From Fimbriimonadia bacterium (GTDB taxonomy: Bacteria; Armatimonadota; Fimbriimonadia; Fimbriimonadales; JABRVX01), in NCBI GenBank assembly GCA_041483895.1, contig JBGPGO010000025.1, forward strand, positions 1 through 42,755: a DNA stretch of 42,755 nucleotides. The letters run 5' to 3'. Positions 23,725 through 31,538 of the stretch are shown here, piece after piece (the stretch's first letter is position 1; each line of letters opens with the position of its first letter). A program made the translations under genes and the position numbers. Below the pieces are notes generated by a model. That model was given only the letters and a program-made list of their open reading frames with translations, made no database searches and had not been told where the DNA came from.

Positions 23725-23853
23725 TGTAGTCGTGGGTCGGATTGCGAATCACCTCGGCATGCTCGCGCTTGTAGTCGTGGGTCGGATTGCGAATCACCTC
23801 GGCATGCTCGCGCTTGTAGTCGTGGGTCGGATTGCGAATCACCTCGGCATGCT
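23725..23853. repeat. Tandem repeat, 45-bp unit, ~2.9 copies
   Basis: TGTAGTCGTGGGTCGGATTGCGAATCACCTCGGCATGCTCGCGCT at 23725 and 23770, plus a 39-bp third copy at 23815. The copies are identical. Confidence 0.95.
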
Positions 23854-23878
23854 AATCACCAAGACCCACGTTGCAACG

Positions 23879-24394: not shown

Positions 24395-25300
24395 ATGAGA
24401 CAGCCCAATCGGCCCAAGGCCGGTCCCTTCCGCGTCGCCGTAGCGCAAATCCATCCCAAGAAGGCCGATTATCCCGCCAACCTGGCGCAAATCGGCGAAG
24501 TGATCGCGCAGGCGGCCAAACTGGATCCTCCCGCGGATATCGTGGTCTTCCCGGAAACGGTGGCGACGGGCTACTTTTTGGAGGGCGGCGTCTACGAACA
24601 GGCCGTACCCGCGGAGCAGTTCTTCAAGGACTTACAGGAGCAAACCGTGCAGCGGGGCCTGACCCGGGCGGTGGATGTGGTCGCCGGATTTTATGAGCTG
24701 GCGGACGGCATCGCCTACAACGCGGCCCTCTACGCCCAGCTCGATCCGGATGGCGGCCGGATCGTCCATCGGCATCGGAAGTTCTTTTTGCCCACGTATG
24801 GGGTGTTCGACGAGGGGCGTTTCGTTCGCCGGGGAAGCCGATTCGAGGCGTTTCAGACCCGATTTCTCCCCTCCGCCGTTCTCATTTGCGAAGACATTTG
24901 GCACAGCATCAGCGCCACCCTTGTTGCTTTGCATGGCGCTCAGGCGATCTTTTGCATCGCGGCCTCCCCTGGTCGGGGTTTTGCCGGGGACCAGATCGGC
25001 AACCAGGCGCGATATCGCCAACTGCTCGTTTCGGTGGCGGAAGAACATTCGGTTTTCATATTCCAGTCCAGCCTGGTGGGGTTCGAGGGCGGCAAGGGTC
25101 TGATCGGCGGAAGCATGATCGTCAGTCCGTTTGGGGAAGTGATCGCGGAAGCGCCCACCGCCCAGGATGCGATTTTGGTGTGCGACTGCCATCCGGACGA
25201 CGTGGAGGTGGCCCGCGCCAACTCCCCACTGCTGGCGGACCTTCGCGGCGCGCTGGGAGACGTGGTGGAAGAGATGGACCGGCTCAAGGAGGAAGAGTGA
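24395..25300 (+). CDS. Nitrilase/carbon-nitrogen hydrolase, probable stand-alone glutaminase subunit of NAD synthetase
   Basis: E-K-C triad (VFPE, HRKFFLPTYGVFDEGRF, LICEDIWH). GTGA overlap with nadE. Confidence 0.88.
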   Translation: MRQPNRPKAGPFRVAVAQIHPKKADYPANLAQIGEVIAQAAKLDPPADIVVFPETVATGYFLEGGVYEQAVPAEQFFKDLQEQTVQRGLTRAVDVVAGFYELADGIAYNAALYAQLDPDGGRIVHRHRKFFLPTYGVFDEGRFVRRGSRFEAFQTRFLPSAVLICEDIWHSISATLVALHGAQAIFCIAASPGRGFAGDQIGNQARYRQLLVSVAEEHSVFIFQSSLVGFEGGKGLIGGSMIVSPFGEVIAEAPTAQDAILVCDCHPDDVEVARANSPLLADLRGALGDVVEEMDRLKEEE

Positions 25301-26157
25301 GCGTCCCGGTCTACTTCGCCGAGCGCCCCTCGCCGGAAGCGCCGCTGGCGATCAATCCGGAGCTGGTCGCGGACTGGCTGGTGGCATTTCTCAAGTCGGA
25401 GGTGATCGGGCGCCGGGGGTTCCAGAACGCGGTGGTCGGGGTCTCGGGCGGGGTGGATTCGGCTGTTACCGCCTATCTGTGCGCCCGCGCATTTGGGCCG
25501 GAGCACACGTACGCGTTCAAGATGCCGTACAAGAAAGTCAGCAGCCCGGAGAGCGTCGCGCATGCGGATATGGTGATTCGGGAGTTGGGCTGCCACGGGC
25601 GCGAGGTGGATATCACGGCGGCGGTGGATGGATATGTTATGAGCAACGAGCCGGAAATCTCGCCGTCGCGGCTGGGCAATGTGTGCGCCCGGACAAGAAT
25701 GATCGTGTTATTTGATCAAGCGATGAAGATCGGCGGGCTGCCCATCGGGACCGGGAATAAATCGGAGCGATTGATGGGATATTTCACGTGGCACGCGGAC
25801 GATTCGCCGCCGATCAATCCGATTGGCGATCTGTTCAAGACGCAGGTGTGGGCGCTCGCTCGGTACTTGGGTGTGCCGCCGGTCATCGTGGATAAACCGG
25901 CCAGCGCGGACCTAATCAAGGGCCAGACGGATGAAGACGATTTCGGCATCAGCTACCACAGGCTGGACATGATCCTGCATCATCTGATCTTGGGCTATCG
26001 ATCAGAACGCCTCTCCCAAATGGGCTTCACACCCGACGAGGTCGCGCGCGTCCGCTCCCGCCTAGACGCGACCCACTGGAAACGCCACCTCGCCACGTCC
26101 TGCGTCCTCTCCGACAGCGCGATTGGGGAGTATTACTTGAGACCGGTGGATTATTGA
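25297..26157 (+). CDS. nadE: NAD+ synthetase (synthetase domain only)
   Basis: GVSGGVDS, GNVCARTRM, GTGNKSE, PIGDLFKTQV and KPASADLIKGQTDEDDFG motifs. Confidence 0.95.
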   Translation: MSVPVYFAERPSPEAPLAINPELVADWLVAFLKSEVIGRRGFQNAVVGVSGGVDSAVTAYLCARAFGPEHTYAFKMPYKKVSSPESVAHADMVIRELGCHGREVDITAAVDGYVMSNEPEISPSRLGNVCARTRMIVLFDQAMKIGGLPIGTGNKSERLMGYFTWHADDSPPINPIGDLFKTQVWALARYLGVPPVIVDKPASADLIKGQTDEDDFGISYHRLDMILHHLILGYRSERLSQMGFTPDEVARVRSRLDATHWKRHLATSCVLSDSAIGEYYLRPVDY

Positions 26158-26222: not shown

Positions 26223-26795
26223 TCAATCTGGATTTCGGTCAGCAGACTGACTTTGGATCACTGCTTCCGTCCTCAGTTCGCGCATTTTCAATTCTCGCCT
26301 ACCTGCAGCTATTACCGATTGGATTGTGCCATTTGTAGCGCCGAGGATCGTCAACATCGTATCGGGGAATAGTGCGTCCCCCGCATCATTTGCATCAAGC
26401 TTAGCCCATATATCCTTTGTGTCCTTGTCAATGCAACAATGCAGCTGCCGTAAATGTGTGATTGCTGGTTGCTCGATAATTAAGCTGGCTATAGCAATAG
26501 CACTGTCAAGTGAACCCTCCGCCGCGACAAGCTCATCCACCAAGTTTGAGACTTCCTTTGGAGATAGGTCCGGCCCCCCTGTGTAGTGGGATACCAACTT
26601 GGGGATTATCCGGACAAAGGTAGCGAGAGCGTCCAATATATTCTTGTACGTTTGGTATTTTAATTCCCAAAGCTTTTGATATCTGAACTGGCGTACGGAT
26701 AGCCAGACGGTGATACTGGCGGTAACAACTGCGATGACCGCCCCGGGAATAAGTGCTTTGAGAATGGCAACGTAGATGTCATCGGCAGGTGTCAA
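26223..26795 (-). CDS. Hypothetical protein with N-terminal TM helix (cassette gene 5)
   Basis: Open frame of ~190 aa, AT-richer than core genes. TTG 7 nt after a GGAGGG located in repeat copy E. Confidence 0.7.
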   Translation of the reverse strand: MTPADDIYVAILKALIPGAVIAVVTASITVWLSVRQFRYQKLWELKYQTYKNILDALATFVRIIPKLVSHYTGGPDLSPKEVSNLVDELVAAEGSLDSAIAIASLIIEQPAITHLRQLHCCIDKDTKDIWAKLDANDAGDALFPDTMLTILGATNGTIQSVIAAGRRELKMRELRTEAVIQSQSADRNPD

Positions 26796-26797
26796 AA

Positions 26798-26952
26798 CTA
26801 ATCCCTCCACGGACCTTACGCGGAGGGTACCCGGTTATATGGCTTCTTGGCATTTTGGTGGTGTATAGGATTGCGATCTCCTGCCCGATTGCCAACTTCG
26901 GTGGGAACCGGCATCCCGGACAACCTTCCGAAAGGCGTTTAAGTCGGGATGC
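26798..26952. repeat. ~155-bp array repeat, copy E (most diverged)
   Basis: ATCCCTCCAC...GGAGGGTACCCGGTT...TCGGTGGGAACCG...AACCTTCC...GGGATGC, colinear with copies A and B. Confidence 0.75.
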
Positions 26953-27009
26953 ACAATTCGAGATTCTAACTATCACCGCTCCACGGCCCCACATGTGGGG
27001 GTCGGCCGG

Positions 27010-27873
27010 CTAGGAATTTTGCCCGGTAAGTTTTTTAGCAGCCAGTGGCAGAAGCTCCTTTGCCGGAGAGCGATCGAGGGCAGCAGTCAGGAGTGGCCCG
27101 ATGTTCTTGACATAATCATCAATCGGTTCCTCCGCGCTCTTGCGATTTCGGGCGCACAGCAGGGCAAGTACCAATAGTTGCGGTCGCTTGGCACCCGGCA
27201 ATGCGGAATAGCCTTGAGCAATCGCGAGATTCACAGCATTAACAGTATGCACCGGGTCAAGATCGAGGTACCCCGACCCATTCATATGATCGATCATTAT
27301 GATGATCTCCTCGCTAGCAGTTGGGACGGGCAGGTCATCGTCATCGCGGGCCGCCTCAAGCACGCCTGCGAGACACCTTATAGGCCCCATGAACGATTTG
27401 CGAATGGTTTCTGTTGGCACCTTCATCCTAGTAACTGGATCGATGCCAAGTACAGATGCCAACTCGTAGTCACCCGCAAGCTCATCAGTCAGTATCCACC
27501 ACGGATCCTCCGTGTAAGCGTGCCGCCTGGCGCCTATCAGGCAGATTTCACCCCAGAAAATGCCGATCCACACTAGCGGCAGGCCTAAGCTCCAAATTCC
27601 GCGGCGACCGACAGATTCAAAGACGACAGTCTTGAGAGACACGTGGGCCACCAACGCGGACGCAAGCGGCGCTATCCAGAGTACGTGAAGTCTGAGGGTT
27701 GGGACAAGCAGGGTGATGAAAAGTATGAGAATCCAAACACCTACGACGGACCTCATTGGAATCATGAGTTCACCCGCACGCTGATAAATCCGGCGAAACT
27801 CAGCGCTAAAACCGAGCGACAACAGTGCAAGAAATCCCCAAACTATCCAACCGAGCACTTCAGTTACCGGCAT
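27010..27873 (-). CDS. Hypothetical membrane protein, ~4 N-terminal TM helices (cassette gene 4)
   Basis: 287-aa ORF whose ATG abuts repeat copy D, which provides GGAGG. Confidence 0.75.
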   Translation of the reverse strand: MPVTEVLGWIVWGFLALLSLGFSAEFRRIYQRAGELMIPMRSVVGVWILILFITLLVPTLRLHVLWIAPLASALVAHVSLKTVVFESVGRRGIWSLGLPLVWIGIFWGEICLIGARRHAYTEDPWWILTDELAGDYELASVLGIDPVTRMKVPTETIRKSFMGPIRCLAGVLEAARDDDDLPVPTASEEIIIMIDHMNGSGYLDLDPVHTVNAVNLAIAQGYSALPGAKRPQLLVLALLCARNRKSAEEPIDDYVKNIGPLLTAALDRSPAKELLPLAAKKLTGQNS

Positions 27874-28020
27874 GCAACCCCTCCAAGAACAATGCGAGGA
27901 GGGTACCCGCTTGGGGGATAGCTTGGTACGTGGAGTTCAGATCGTGTTGCAGACGCCTGCCCATCCGCCACCATCGGCAGGATCCGAAAACCCCAACATC
28001 CCTCCACGAAAGGCATGGGG
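27874..28020. repeat. Array repeat, copy D (diverged, right palindrome truncated by the adjacent stop codon)
   Basis: CCCTCC...GGAGGGTACCC...GGAGTTCAGATCG...CGCCACCATCGGCAGGATCCGAAAACCCCAA. Confidence 0.85.
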
Positions 28021-28467
28021 CTACTCCTTTTTGAGTCCGGCCTCCATCTTTTCCAGCCGCTCTAGGATCGCGTTGATGGCATCGTCCTGCTCCTTCAGAT
28101 GGTCCTGAATCTGCCGAGCCTCATGGAACGTGGCCTCCGCATCCTTGTACGTCAGTTCTGCGCGTTTGTCCCCGGCCTTTCCCAGGATGTTCTGTCCAAC
28201 CATGATTACGGAGAGCATAACCAATTGAATGAACGTCTGACTGACCCACTGGATGAACGTAAGAAGGCCGCCGTGCACCGCATCGGGAAGCACCGTCAAG
28301 GCCAGAAGAGCGAAAACATACGCGCACCACATGGTTCCGACGGCCGACGTCAAGACCAGGGCAATCTTTCCGTTCAATCCCAAGCTTGCATCGCGGACCT
28401 TTGGCGGCCCGGACTTCTTGCGCTCCTCGATATGAGGATGACTGTGATGTTCAAAGCTAAGTCTCAT
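28021..28467 (-). CDS. Small membrane protein, DUF1003-like (cassette gene 3)
   Basis: TSAVGTMW...two TM...SVIMVGQN followed by a coiled-coil tail, resembling the DUF1003 pattern. Confidence 0.75.
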   Translation of the reverse strand: MRLSFEHHSHPHIEERKKSGPPKVRDASLGLNGKIALVLTSAVGTMWCAYVFALLALTVLPDAVHGGLLTFIQWVSQTFIQLVMLSVIMVGQNILGKAGDKRAELTYKDAEATFHEARQIQDHLKEQDDAINAILERLEKMEAGLKKE

Positions 28468-28477
28468 GATGGGTATT

Positions 28478-28623
28478 TGACATCCTTCCGCGAACAGTTT
28501 GTGGAGGGTACCTGGTTTGGCGTTTGGAGTTCAGATTGGGCTGCAAATGCCCGGCCCGTTCGCCACCATCGGTGGGATCCGAAAACCCCAATAACCCTGC
28601 ACAAATTGTTTGTGGACGGATGC
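28478..28623. repeat. Array repeat, copy C (~10-bp internal deletion)
   Basis: TGACATCCTTCC...TTTGTGGAGGGTACC...CCATCGGTGGGATCCGAAAACCCCAATAACC...CACAAATTGTTTGTGG..GGATGC. Confidence 0.92.
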
Positions 28624-28628
28624 AAACA

Positions 28629-29699
28629 TTACGTCTCGGTGACATTGATCTCCACCGGGATCGAATGGTCAATCACGTATGAGCCGTAGTTCCAATCGCG
28701 CTCGGTAGCCTGGACCCGTCCATGCGAATCGCGCGCACGCGACAAGATCGTTCTGACTCCACACGGCCCTTTCACCAGCCACTCGAAAGACCAGAGACGC
28801 CACGATCCGGCGACACTTGGACTGGACATTTCTGCCTTTCCCCAGTTGAGCCCATCGTCGACGCTCACCTCTACCGCTGTGACTTCGCCAGTGCCGGTCC
28901 ATGCGGCTCCGCAGATCTCGATGCGCTCGCCGGCTTGCACGTAAGTTCCCCGTGTCGGGCGAGCGATGAGCGACTTGACCGGCATCGCGCCGATCGGTCT
29001 GAGCTCGGGCAAGCCATCGTTGACCTGCCAATACGAATAGTCGCTGGTCTGATAGTAGCCCCCGAACGCATGATCGAGTGCGACGATCCGAATCACCCAC
29101 TTTACGCTAGCGGCGCCATACCATCCTGGAACAATCAGGCGGACTGGAAAGCCATGAGCAGGGCTCAAGGGCTCGCCGTTCATCTCGTACACCAGGATCG
29201 GCCAGCCCGAGAGGGCTAAGTCTCTGGGAATGCTTCTCGCGTAAGCGACATCCCCACAGGGCGCAGCCGGATTCTTGACCTTCCCTCTGTCGGCCCCTTC
29301 AAAAACCACATCCACCGCCCGGTCGGTGACTCCAGCCAACTCCAGGAGTGTGCGCACTGAAACGCCGGACCAGATCGCGTTCCCAACAGCCCCACAGTCC
29401 CATTGCAATCCGGGCACAGGAGTTTCCAGAGCAGCCCGGCCGTTGCCAGCGCACTCAAGAACCGACTCAACTGAAACCTTCGGCATGGACATGAGATCGT
29501 CCAAGCTGAATTGGATTGGTTGATCGACGCAACCGTCTACCTTTAGTCGCCAAGAGGCGGCTTTGATCATCGGGGTGTCGTAGTGGCTGCGAACAAAGAA
29601 CAGTTCGTTCGGGGTGATCGGACCATCGAGCGCGTGCAGCGGAAACTCTAACGCCTCTGGCGCCACGCTGCGACGGATCAGTTCAATCTTGTCGTTCAA
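28629..29699 (-). CDS. Sulfite oxidase-family molybdopterin enzyme (cassette gene 2)
   Basis: TPNELFFVRSH, Mo-ligand LECAGNGR, GNAIWSGV, HGFPVRLIVPGWYGAASVKW and a C-terminal dimerisation domain. No Tat signal visible. Confidence 0.92.
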   Translation of the reverse strand: MNDKIELIRRSVAPEALEFPLHALDGPITPNELFFVRSHYDTPMIKAASWRLKVDGCVDQPIQFSLDDLMSMPKVSVESVLECAGNGRAALETPVPGLQWDCGAVGNAIWSGVSVRTLLELAGVTDRAVDVVFEGADRGKVKNPAAPCGDVAYARSIPRDLALSGWPILVYEMNGEPLSPAHGFPVRLIVPGWYGAASVKWVIRIVALDHAFGGYYQTSDYSYWQVNDGLPELRPIGAMPVKSLIARPTRGTYVQAGERIEICGAAWTGTGEVTAVEVSVDDGLNWGKAEMSSPSVAGSWRLWSFEWLVKGPCGVRTILSRARDSHGRVQATERDWNYGSYVIDHSIPVEINVTET

Positions 29700-29719
29700 G
29701 GTCCACGGAGTCTACCATC

Positions 29720-29875
29720 TGACATCCCTCCACAAACACTTTGTGGAGGGTACCCGGTTGGCGGTCTGCTTGGCATCTGGAGTTCAAATCGGTTTGCAAA
29801 TGCCTGTCCGTTCGCCGCCATCGGTGGGATCCGAAATCCCCAATAACCTTCCACAAATTGTTTGTGGAGGGATGC
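29720..29875. repeat. Array repeat, copy A (156 bp, best preserved)
   Basis: Perfect 16-bp terminal inverted repeat CATCCCTCCACAAACA/TGTTTGTGGAGGGATG, with a palindrome at each end. Confidence 0.95.
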
Positions 29876-29877
29876 AC

Positions 29878-30261
29878 TCATTTTCTTGCGTGTCCAAGTC
29901 TCAATAGGCAAGTTGCGATGATCAATAAAGCAGGAGGCGCCAACGCAAAGGAAATTGGGCTAATCGTTCCTTGCAACAGATCCTGTATCATCCCTAGCAA
30001 TAAAATTGCTGCACTTGGTAAATATCCCACGGCAGCGCCGACATACCCCCAGCGCTTGTTCGCCAATACTCCTGGGATGCAACAAACCGCGAAAATTAAT
30101 GGTATTGCCCACGGTATTACGATAGCATCAATGCTAAAGTCCTGCTTTTGAATCTCGCTTGCTGATTGATAGTTTTCAACAAGCACAGACTTGATCAAAA
30201 GAACCTGTACGACGGCAACGATAACGATCGCAACTGACAACGCATAGTCCCAGCGTTTCAT
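29878..30261 (-). CDS. Hypothetical 4-TM membrane protein (cassette gene 1)
   Basis: Very hydrophobic, AT-rich ORF filling the space between repeats A and B. ATG 9 nt after GGAGGG in copy B; alternative ATG at 30270. Confidence 0.75.
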   Translation of the reverse strand: MKRWDYALSVAIVIVAVVQVLLIKSVLVENYQSASEIQKQDFSIDAIVIPWAIPLIFAVCCIPGVLANKRWGYVGAAVGYLPSAAILLLGMIQDLLQGTISPISFALAPPALLIIATCLLRLGHARK

Positions 30262-30264
30262 GTC

Positions 30265-30420
30265 TGACATCCCTCCACAAACACTTTGTGGAGGGTACCC
30301 GGTTGGCGGTCTGCTTGGCTTCTAGAGCTCCGATCGGGTTGCAAATGCCTGTCCGTTCGCCGCCATCGGTGGGATCCGAACACCCCGATAACTCACCACA
30401 AATTGTTTGTCGAGCGATGC
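30265..30420. repeat. Array repeat, copy B (156 bp)
   Basis: First 55 nt identical to copy A; about 14 substitutions overall by manual count. Confidence 0.95.
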
Positions 30421-30500
30421 CAAGTGGCCAGCACGATACGCGGACCTTGGTGGGTGGTGAATCGAGGGCATTCGGTAAGACGGTCCGCGTCTACGGAGAG

Positions 30501-31538
30501 TTACGGTTGAACGCCGTGGCCGGATGTGATGGTGGAGAGATCGAGGGTGGGGCCGGTCTGGGCGTAGCCGCCACGCAATGGATGCTCCGCCATGAACAGC
30601 GGTGTGTCCAGGTCGACAAAATCGAAACCGCCGAGGCCGGCAGCGAAACAGGCGGAGGTGGACATGGCAAGTTCCGTCTCCAACATCCCGCCAATCATCA
30701 GACCCAGACCGAGGCGGCGGCACAGCGCGGCCACGTCCAGCGCTTCCACAATCCCCATCTTCATCAACTTGATATTGACGACATCGGCGGCCTTGCCGGC
30801 AAAGAGCCGCAACACATCCGCGCAATCGCAGGCGCTCTCATCCGCAGCGATCGGGATACCCGTCTTTTCGCGTATCTCGCGCAGTCCATCCAGATCATCA
30901 CGCGGGACCGGCTGCTCGAACAGGATGATGCCCGAGCGGTGGTCGGCGAAGAGATCGATGGCGGCGTTGACGGTTAGGCCGGCGTTTCCATCGAGCATCA
31001 GTTCGGCGGTCGGCGCGGCCTCGCAAACCGCATGAAGACAAACGGCATCCCGTGGCGAACCGACCTTCAGCTTGATGCGCGAAAAGCCCATCGCAACCGC
31101 ACGCGTCGCCGCCTCTCCCGCTGACTGTGGATCACAGATCGGAATCGTGATGTCCGACTCCAACGAGGTGAGCATGCCGCCGAAAAACGACCACATGGGA
31201 AGACCGATGCTGCGGCACAGCGCGTCCAGCATCGCCGTCTCAGCGGCGCACAATGCCGACTTCATCGACGACGGCAAATCGGAAGAAACTCGACGCCACT
31301 GCCGCACATCCGCGCCGATCAAGCCCGCCCGCATTTCATTCAACGCCATGCGCGCATCCGACAATGTTTCGCCATTGAAAACCGGAAGCGGCGCGGCCTC
31401 GCCATATCCGCGTGTGCCGTCTTTCAAAACTATGGTGACGAGCAGATTGTCCATCGAGTCATTTGAGCCGCGCGAAATACCAAACGGCTGCGTCAGCGGG
31501 ACATACAATGGTTCGATGAGCAGATCGACAATCTTCAT
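30501..31538 (-). CDS. Dipeptide epimerase (L-Ala-D/L-Glu epimerase-like, enolase superfamily)
   Basis: GYGEAAP, IKLKVG, LDGNAG, FEQP, AADES, NIKLMK and VDLD motifs. ATGA overlap with the ALDH stop. Confidence 0.9.
   Translation of the reverse strand: MKIVDLLIEPLYVPLTQPFGISRGSNDSMDNLLVTIVLKDGTRGYGEAAPLPVFNGETLSDARMALNEMRAGLIGADVRQWRRVSSDLPSSMKSALCAAETAMLDALCRSIGLPMWSFFGGMLTSLESDITIPICDPQSAGEAATRAVAMGFSRIKLKVGSPRDAVCLHAVCEAAPTAELMLDGNAGLTVNAAIDLFADHRSGIILFEQPVPRDDLDGLREIREKTGIPIAADESACDCADVLRLFAGKAADVVNIKLMKMGIVEALDVAALCRRLGLGLMIGGMLETELAMSTSACFAAGLGGFDFVDLDTPLFMAEHPLRGGYAQTGPTLDLSTITSGHGVQP

Follow-up and report, generated by a model that had tools for sequence, protein, structure and literature searches.

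Doublets of repetitive extragenic palindromes (REPs), the REP-associated tyrosine transposases (RAYTs) and inverted repeats without a GTAG tag are already known (PMC3116915; PMC5581495; PMC6006769; PMC3733652; here and below, statements on published work refer to the parts of each source available to us). In the REPIN-RAYT and REP-BIME-TnpA(REP) systems (REPIN, a REP doublet forming a hairpin; BIME, bacterial interspersed mosaic element), the doublet is extragenic, consists of inverted palindromes and can fold into a hairpin; its family flanks RAYT genes, with several subtypes and RAYTs in one genome, and forms local clusters (PMC3116915; PMC3333891; PMC8266576). All of this applies to the subject of this report, a row of about 4.2 kb in which five co-oriented repeats of about 155 bp (R1-R5) alternate with single genes (g1-g5). 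The row lies in a stretch of 42,755 nucleotides (the window; contig JBGPGO010000025.1 of assembly GCA_041483895.1) from a Fimbriimonadia bacterium. The repeats are very probably non-autonomous REP doublets of the REPIN type, that is, the ends of a RAYT element without the transposase gene. Unlike the doublets described in the same sources, those of the array are of a rare subtype and take turns with whole genes, one for one.

Other described systems also come close. In TIRtrons (TIRYT) and the atypical-palindrome subclasses of TnpA(Y1), RAYT-like genes likewise stand between non-GTAG, partly self-complementary inverted repeats, which occur as singles and dimers too; gene-punctuating arrays are not described in the available parts of those accounts (PMC3733652; PMC6006769). 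In the prochlorosin case, as here, a RAYT-type nuclease has been proposed to diversify a gene array; unlike here, the genes are paralogs amid transposase fragments, and the authors later saw no strong evidence of causation (bioRxiv 10.1101/2020.03.09.984088). In vitro, the TnpA-REP of E. coli cuts some distance away from the hairpin and carries out strand exchange; the authors of that work proposed that this activity lets a REP unit sequester whole genes (PMC3333891); an assay for its cleavage and strand transfer is available (PMC8266576). No circles were observed from E. coli REP regions in vivo (bioRxiv 10.1101/2024.07.17.603846), and the host role of domesticated RAYT transposases is an open question (PMC5581495). 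Our literature search, whose scope left out most subscription papers and supplements, found no array with one gene per doublet; Supplementary Figure S7 of PMC3333891, on REP-sequestered genes, may bear on novelty.

Repeats, genes and junctions of the row

The anatomy of the row can be read directly from the window, whose positions are used throughout, and all its units lie on the minus strand. At the head, R1 (30265..30422) has an intact gene-proximal palindrome and a decayed outer one, and is followed by g1 (29878..30261), encoding a hydrophobic protein of 127 aa. R2 (29720..29876), the best kept of all the doublets, precedes g2 (28629..29699) for a sulfite-oxidase-family molybdoenzyme of 356 aa, and R3 (28478..28624), with a deletion of 11 nt in its spacer, precedes g3 (28021..28467) for a DUF1003-like membrane protein of 148 aa. 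R4 (27873..28020) is decayed: its right end is about 8 nt short, its outer palindrome is truncated at the stop codon of g3, and the start of g4 (27010..27873; 287 aa) overlaps its other end. R5 (26797..26953), the most decayed, precedes g5 (26223..26795; 190 aa), a member of a distant, unnamed family. An initial annotation, made from the letters alone, had described five repeats in the same orientation, each followed by one minus-strand gene, and nhmmer, BLASTN and the list of open reading frames (ORFs) agree. An nhmmer model built from the five copies gives E <= 2e-41 and pairwise BLASTN gives E values from 4e-59 to 3e-4, so that the likeness of the repeats is not due to chance.

The geometry of the junctions is equally a matter of direct observation. 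Between the end of the repeat and the start codon there are 3, 20, 10, -1 (an overlap) and 1 nt for R1/g1 to R5/g5, and between the stop codons of g1 to g4 and the next repeat 1, 4, 0 and 56 nt; the initial annotation had rightly placed three of these four stops next to a repeat. Contigs of four out of 23 public runs (X1-X4), which may include the source sample, bridge the junctions with zero skipped units, no single piece covering the row, and the array is therefore not an assembly error. One contig of X1, 575 nt long, consists of g1 and a hybrid R1/R2 repeat (545 nt plus an overlap of 30), the shape expected of an excised circle. It was rejected as such: the middle of R2 and the outer flank of R1 are missing from X1 and X2 spans an unchanged R2, which points to bubble-popping during assembly. 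As an observation apart, an ATG at the end of R2 (29683-29719) begins a reading frame of only 11 codons, overlapping the TTG start codon of g2, possibly a leader or a frameshift scar.

Each repeat consists of two inverted 25-bp palindromes flanking a spacer of about 95 bp, and the palindrome at either end is a member of a family found across the genome, a point absent from the initial annotation. Folded in 150-nt windows, R2 and R3 form a single long hairpin (z -5.3 and -5.7), which in R2 has an unpaired base near its outer end; R4 and R5 fold no better than shuffles. It should be noted that this long fold is not what the copies conserve. The conserved structure is the gene-proximal hairpin, kept in every copy with GGAGG or GGAAGG on the coding strand while the outer arms decay; GAGG stands at the outer end of every palindrome. 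A decay gradient is directly visible, in that the differences from R2 climb along the row (18/162, 21/151, 43/154 and 57/162). Amid the 18 differences between R1 and R2 there are identical tracts of 57 nt (the first of R1, with 2 flanking nt) and 42 nt, a pattern seen in 1 of 20000 shuffles, which points to copying or gene conversion in the recent past.

A promoter consensus scan returned one site in the region, none of it inside the repeats and fewer than in shuffles, and the repeat has no Rfam match. By eye, no direct repeat (target-site duplication) of the kind expected for a miniature inverted-repeat transposable element of a DDE transposase flanks R1-R3 or R5. A candidate sixth, decayed half-repeat behind g5 was discarded, its score being reached also by 12-19% of random windows.

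With the cassette arrays of integrons the row shares several traits: each repeat has a single promoterless ORF, the ORFs are co-oriented and closely bordered, many of the genes are orphans and the older units are distal. Unlike in those arrays, the repeat precedes the gene and appears to supply its ribosome-binding site, IntI and the attC core motifs were not found, and there is no evidence of excision. In the assembly, which is 95% complete, the best match to the IntI model TIGR02249 scores 79.7 bits against a cut-off of 265. A motif scan with up to one mismatch permitted at each end found no attC pair (RYYYAAC...GTTRRRY) at the junctions and only poor pairs inside g2; strict matches in the whole genome number two, both isolated. 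The genome has ten matches to the tyrosine-recombinase domain, the best two being XerC/XerD-like by inspection. One co-oriented ORF per repeat is what an integron has as well, but with no IntI above the cut-off and no attC-like site the array is not an integron, in keeping with the initial annotation.

A palindrome family linked to RAYT genes

That the array palindrome belongs to a genome-wide family is again observed directly. The family has the form AT-CCCT...AGGG, and a fuzzy scan of the genome found 182 sites, of subtypes A (119), B (34), C (22) and D (7); the same scan found, as a control, 76 sites of an unrelated palindrome type. The array subtype is D, with only those seven sites and six full doublets in the genome. 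The repeat is thus in all likelihood a REP doublet of a RAYT-linked family, and not undescribed as had been claimed. Scatter of the repeat in ordinary intergenic spaces, named by the initial annotation as part of what would count against gene capture, is present by half: the palindrome family is scattered, but the exact doublet is not. At the type-A sites, starts abut the repeat in 9/119 cases and stops in 8/119, as against 5/5 and 3/4 in the array.

Six Y1 genes are present in the genome, four of them flanked by A- or B-type palindromes, and the protein of contig C27 exceeds the cut-off of the NCBIfam model REP_Tyr_transpos (NF047646; 96.4 vs 80 bits). Relatives of these RAYTs were seen in 31 of the 131 genomes that represent the class, the present one counted, and perfect palindromes of the AT-CCCT...AGGG type adjoin 13 of the 30 relative RAYT loci examined, a count that misses imperfect ones. 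These associations support an HUH nuclease as the likely trans-acting enzyme, one of the candidates put forward at the outset. The RAYT nearest to subtype D is that of G002, a genome of the same family, where the palindrome beside the RAYT gene is identical to that of the array in its 9-bp arms and 2-nt flanks. This near-identical palindrome forms dense clusters at four loci of G002 and was not found in G001, the other same-family genome; further genomes have a few copies, mostly around RAYT genes. Two dense clusters in G002, L022 (G002:C33:11153-12739) and L040, are free of genes and have a period of about 50 nt.

Four B-type doublets retain the promoter of a RAYT gene, its start or first codons and/or its 3' end (C13:26294-26507, C19:58475-58669, C21:29620-29815 and C1:244595-244772, the last joining a B-type to a C-type end). 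With these parts retained, the B-type doublets are RAYT elements whose middle has been deleted, and they provide direct evidence that doublets originate by internal deletion of RAYT elements. In this respect they differ from the REPIN-RAYT doublets as described in the available accounts: they are demonstrably emptied RAYT elements (PMC3116915; PMC3333891; PMC8266576). The tag differs as well, being NCAT or NNAT at the 5' side instead of GTAG or GTGG. In this genome and its relatives the 5' tag reads ACAT, GCAT or NNAT, GTAG/GTGG is not present at the foot of the hairpin, and the array repeats are therefore not filed as canonical GTAG-tagged REPs.

The array doublet aligns by eye with the ends of RAYT elements, its polarity running from the 5' end through the spacer to the 3' end and then the gene. 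The spacer has two weak matches to unrelated RAYT loci. Its plus-strand frame had suggested a leftover of the 3' coding end of a RAYT gene; this candidate was rejected, as no DNA alignment above shuffles was obtained with four family RAYT loci or with L029.

Five of the six full D doublets stand inside the row; the sixth is at C6:208978-209114, and remnants occur in C27, at C6:207233 and in C20. The C6 doublet lies directly behind a 5' remnant of a RAYT gene and ahead of three co-oriented ORFs (GC 0.45-0.52), which have a B palindrome and a decayed arm of type D between them and adjoin a nusA-like gene. This is a second, older and decayed row (C6:206718-209200) with the polarity of the array, with the reservation that its first ORF starts about 290 nt from the repeat and its middle ORF runs through the decayed arm. 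At C27:24805-26901 an intact RAYT gene is followed, about 10 nt past its stop, by a co-oriented gene for a secreted-looking protein and then by a decayed D doublet of reverse polarity.

Searches beyond this genome returned little. Exact arm and two-part patterns gave 0 matches in metagenome contigs, a set that may lack near-identical genomes; the arm pattern gave one stray match beyond this genome among 401 genomes of the phylum (a sample that did not include G001 and G002); and a DNA search of 60 relatives with the repeat gave only two short weak matches, one of them in G036, on which we base no claim. The REPs of Pseudomonas are a mark of old core DNA and are scarce in acquired regions (PMC3390384), whereas the B, C and D types here adjoin low-GC DNA. 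A low-GC flank is found at 15/42 of the B and C elements vs 10/85 of the A elements (p = 0.004, counts back-calculated from fractions), and the B and C elements form no arrays.

Two further features of the family deserve mention. Three RAYT paralogs (C6:19328, C21:32184 and C27:26305) are 81-91% identical, with reading frames that end inside the 3' palindrome, and resemble insertion sequences (ISs) more than a typical RAYT, present in a single copy, does. The end of a different insertion element, starting with TGTA, is located within a palindrome loop of type B, C or D in all six of its BLAST hits (C20:20162, C21:32137, C1:403821, C2:178880, C2:156773 and C6:42978). Its ends resemble what we take to be those of the IS481 family, and the element is probably a palindrome-targeting IS or its miniature; we found no paper on such a pairing of element and palindrome.

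Genes of the row and the locus in relatives

The array genes are of mixed origins, as is evident from their composition and relatives. The GC contents of g1 to g5 are 0.46, 0.59, 0.55, 0.54 and 0.49, compared with 0.58 for the genome and 0.61 for each of the two boundary genes. GC at third codon positions is 0.47, 0.68, 0.70, 0.57 and 0.51; the reference for the genome, built from long ORFs filtered to values above 0.55, is 0.70 +/- 0.06. In codon adaptation g1, g4 and g5 fall in the lowest 0.2%, while g2 and g3 look native. The greater AT-richness first noted for several genes therefore applies to three of the five.

The labels first given to the genes stood in part: the sulfite-oxidase family of g2 is above the Pfam cut-off (with scores below the SorA, SoxC and SorT cut-offs), and DUF1003 for g3 is only below it (21.3 vs 27.4 bits). 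No Pfam or NCBIfam family matches g1, g4 or g5 (E<=0.01-0.1). For g1 and g4 no homolog was found among 5.8 billion proteins of similar length, and an Atlas search with g4 gave only scores <0.8. The same similar-length search found none for g5, nor did a search of the 130 other genomes of the class; a full HMMER search yielded 196 distant representatives (E<=0.001), mostly 25-45% identical, and Pfam matched none of the 12 examined among 150 relatives of g5. Relatives of g2, 44-47% identical, are found in 3/130 genomes; g3 has matches in 23/130, nine of them at 63-79%. In 12 fetched loci of g2 and g3 relatives, none adjoins another array gene.

The row is bounded on the left by nadE (25297..26157, plus strand) and on the right by a gene for an enolase-superfamily epimerase (30501..31538, minus strand), which is co-oriented with the array. 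A nitrilase gene adjoins nadE here as in the two same-family genomes, G001 and G002, where the pair is followed within about 30 nt by an unrelated gene and no repeat. Thus the array behind nadE is absent in 2/2 same-family genomes, and with the relatives of g2 and g3 standing in other neighbourhoods, the five genes do not form a vertically conserved block, in line with the initial annotation. The epimerase has only 25% matches in G001 and G002 and no ortholog; since another gene also stands behind nadE there, a true empty site is lacking. Elsewhere in the window, three tandem 45-nt units, two of them identical, lie between a nrdR-like gene and the next (23725-23859).

Formation of the row

The leading explanation, which we hold at about even odds, is that the row was extended step by step from its head, next to the epimerase, gaining a gene and a doublet each time, with a RAYT as the likely enzyme; the order of events, the enzyme and the expression are inferred in this account. 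A RAYT encoded elsewhere would nick a single strand of DNA at a hairpin or close to it and link it either with incoming DNA or with a gene that already has its doublet, leaving a gene trimmed near its coding ends and set behind a doublet. Because the GGAGG or GGAAGG of the gene-proximal palindrome would act as a ribosome-binding site, promoterless genes could be expressed by read-through, probably from the epimerase, and hence be kept, while older units would decay. Stepwise gain is made plausible by the one-to-one layout, the decay from the head, the repeat-supplied ribosome-binding motif, the mixed origins, the absence from two same-family genomes and the C6 row.

Several observations weigh against stepwise gain. 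No RAYT flanked by the exact D subtype was found in the assembly, and the spacer aligns with none of the 7 RAYT loci tried or the 30 relative loci, so that the array doublet's own parent RAYT was not found. Palindromes adjoin g2 or g3 relatives at 0/12 loci (one poor match being discounted), and the genomes compared include no congeneric genome or empty site. The decay from head to tail is imperfect, as the outer arm of R1 is itself decayed (10/39 differences from R2); the copies on C20 and C27 stand in reverse polarity to their neighbouring gene; local clustering is usual for repeats of this family; and five repeats would share an orientation by chance in 1 of 16 cases. The four runs all have the same arrangement, and with no strain variation and no trustworthy circle in them, the insertion of single ORFs at the repeat, as first proposed, stays an interpretation.

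As the main alternative it is possible, if on the unlikely side, that the repeats came second, accessory genes having collected behind the epimerase in some other way and one doublet subtype having hopped locally into each gap, to be kept only in the orientation in which it supplied a ribosome-binding site. Local piling-up is typical, as the four dense loci of G002 illustrate, and REPIN clusters arise through insertion beside existing REPINs (PMC3116915). The GAGG at every palindrome's outer end would make abutting starts selectable, and the B and C types favour low-GC neighbours without forming arrays. Such a course nevertheless requires five unrelated genes pre-packed nearly without untranslated regions, exactly one insertion per gap and a position-dependent decay by chance, and R4, truncated at the stop of g3, is not a whole insertion.

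Alternatively, the doublets may serve as portable homology, RecA-type recombination between incoming doublets and the resident head copy adding or removing genes and RAYTs only spreading the repeats. The patchy identical tracts of R1 and R2 would fit gene conversion and a RAYT with the D subtype was not found, but we consider this course quite improbable: it leaves unexplained how the genes first came within a few bases of a doublet, and homologous donors look scarce, as the D subtype is in no other genome searched. Finally, an integron-like system in which a tyrosine or serine recombinase uses the repeat as an attC analogue has next to no likelihood, for although there is one gene per repeat, an unpaired base in the long hairpin of R2 and ten recombinase-domain matches, IntI is below the cut-off, the best recombinases are XerC/XerD-like, attC motifs are absent, the arms are RAYT-end palindromes and the fold that is conserved is not the long hairpin.

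In closing, stepwise gain with a RAYT can be carried one step further, to the proposal, which we hold to be unlikely, that a RAYT clade of this class runs an integrase-free cassette system, with an HUH nuclease excising single-stranded circles of gene plus doublet and inserting them at the head. Emptied RAYT ends would then be the recombination sites, and the palindrome would double as a ribosome-binding site. The strict pairing of one gene with one doublet, the gradient of decay and the presence of four candidate enzymes within one genome make the locus an unusually clean test case. If the doublets simply followed the genes, it would be an ordinary local cluster of REPs whose tag is not GTAG; if the integrase-free cassette reading is true, RAYTs would gain the kind of host-beneficial function that has been looked for.

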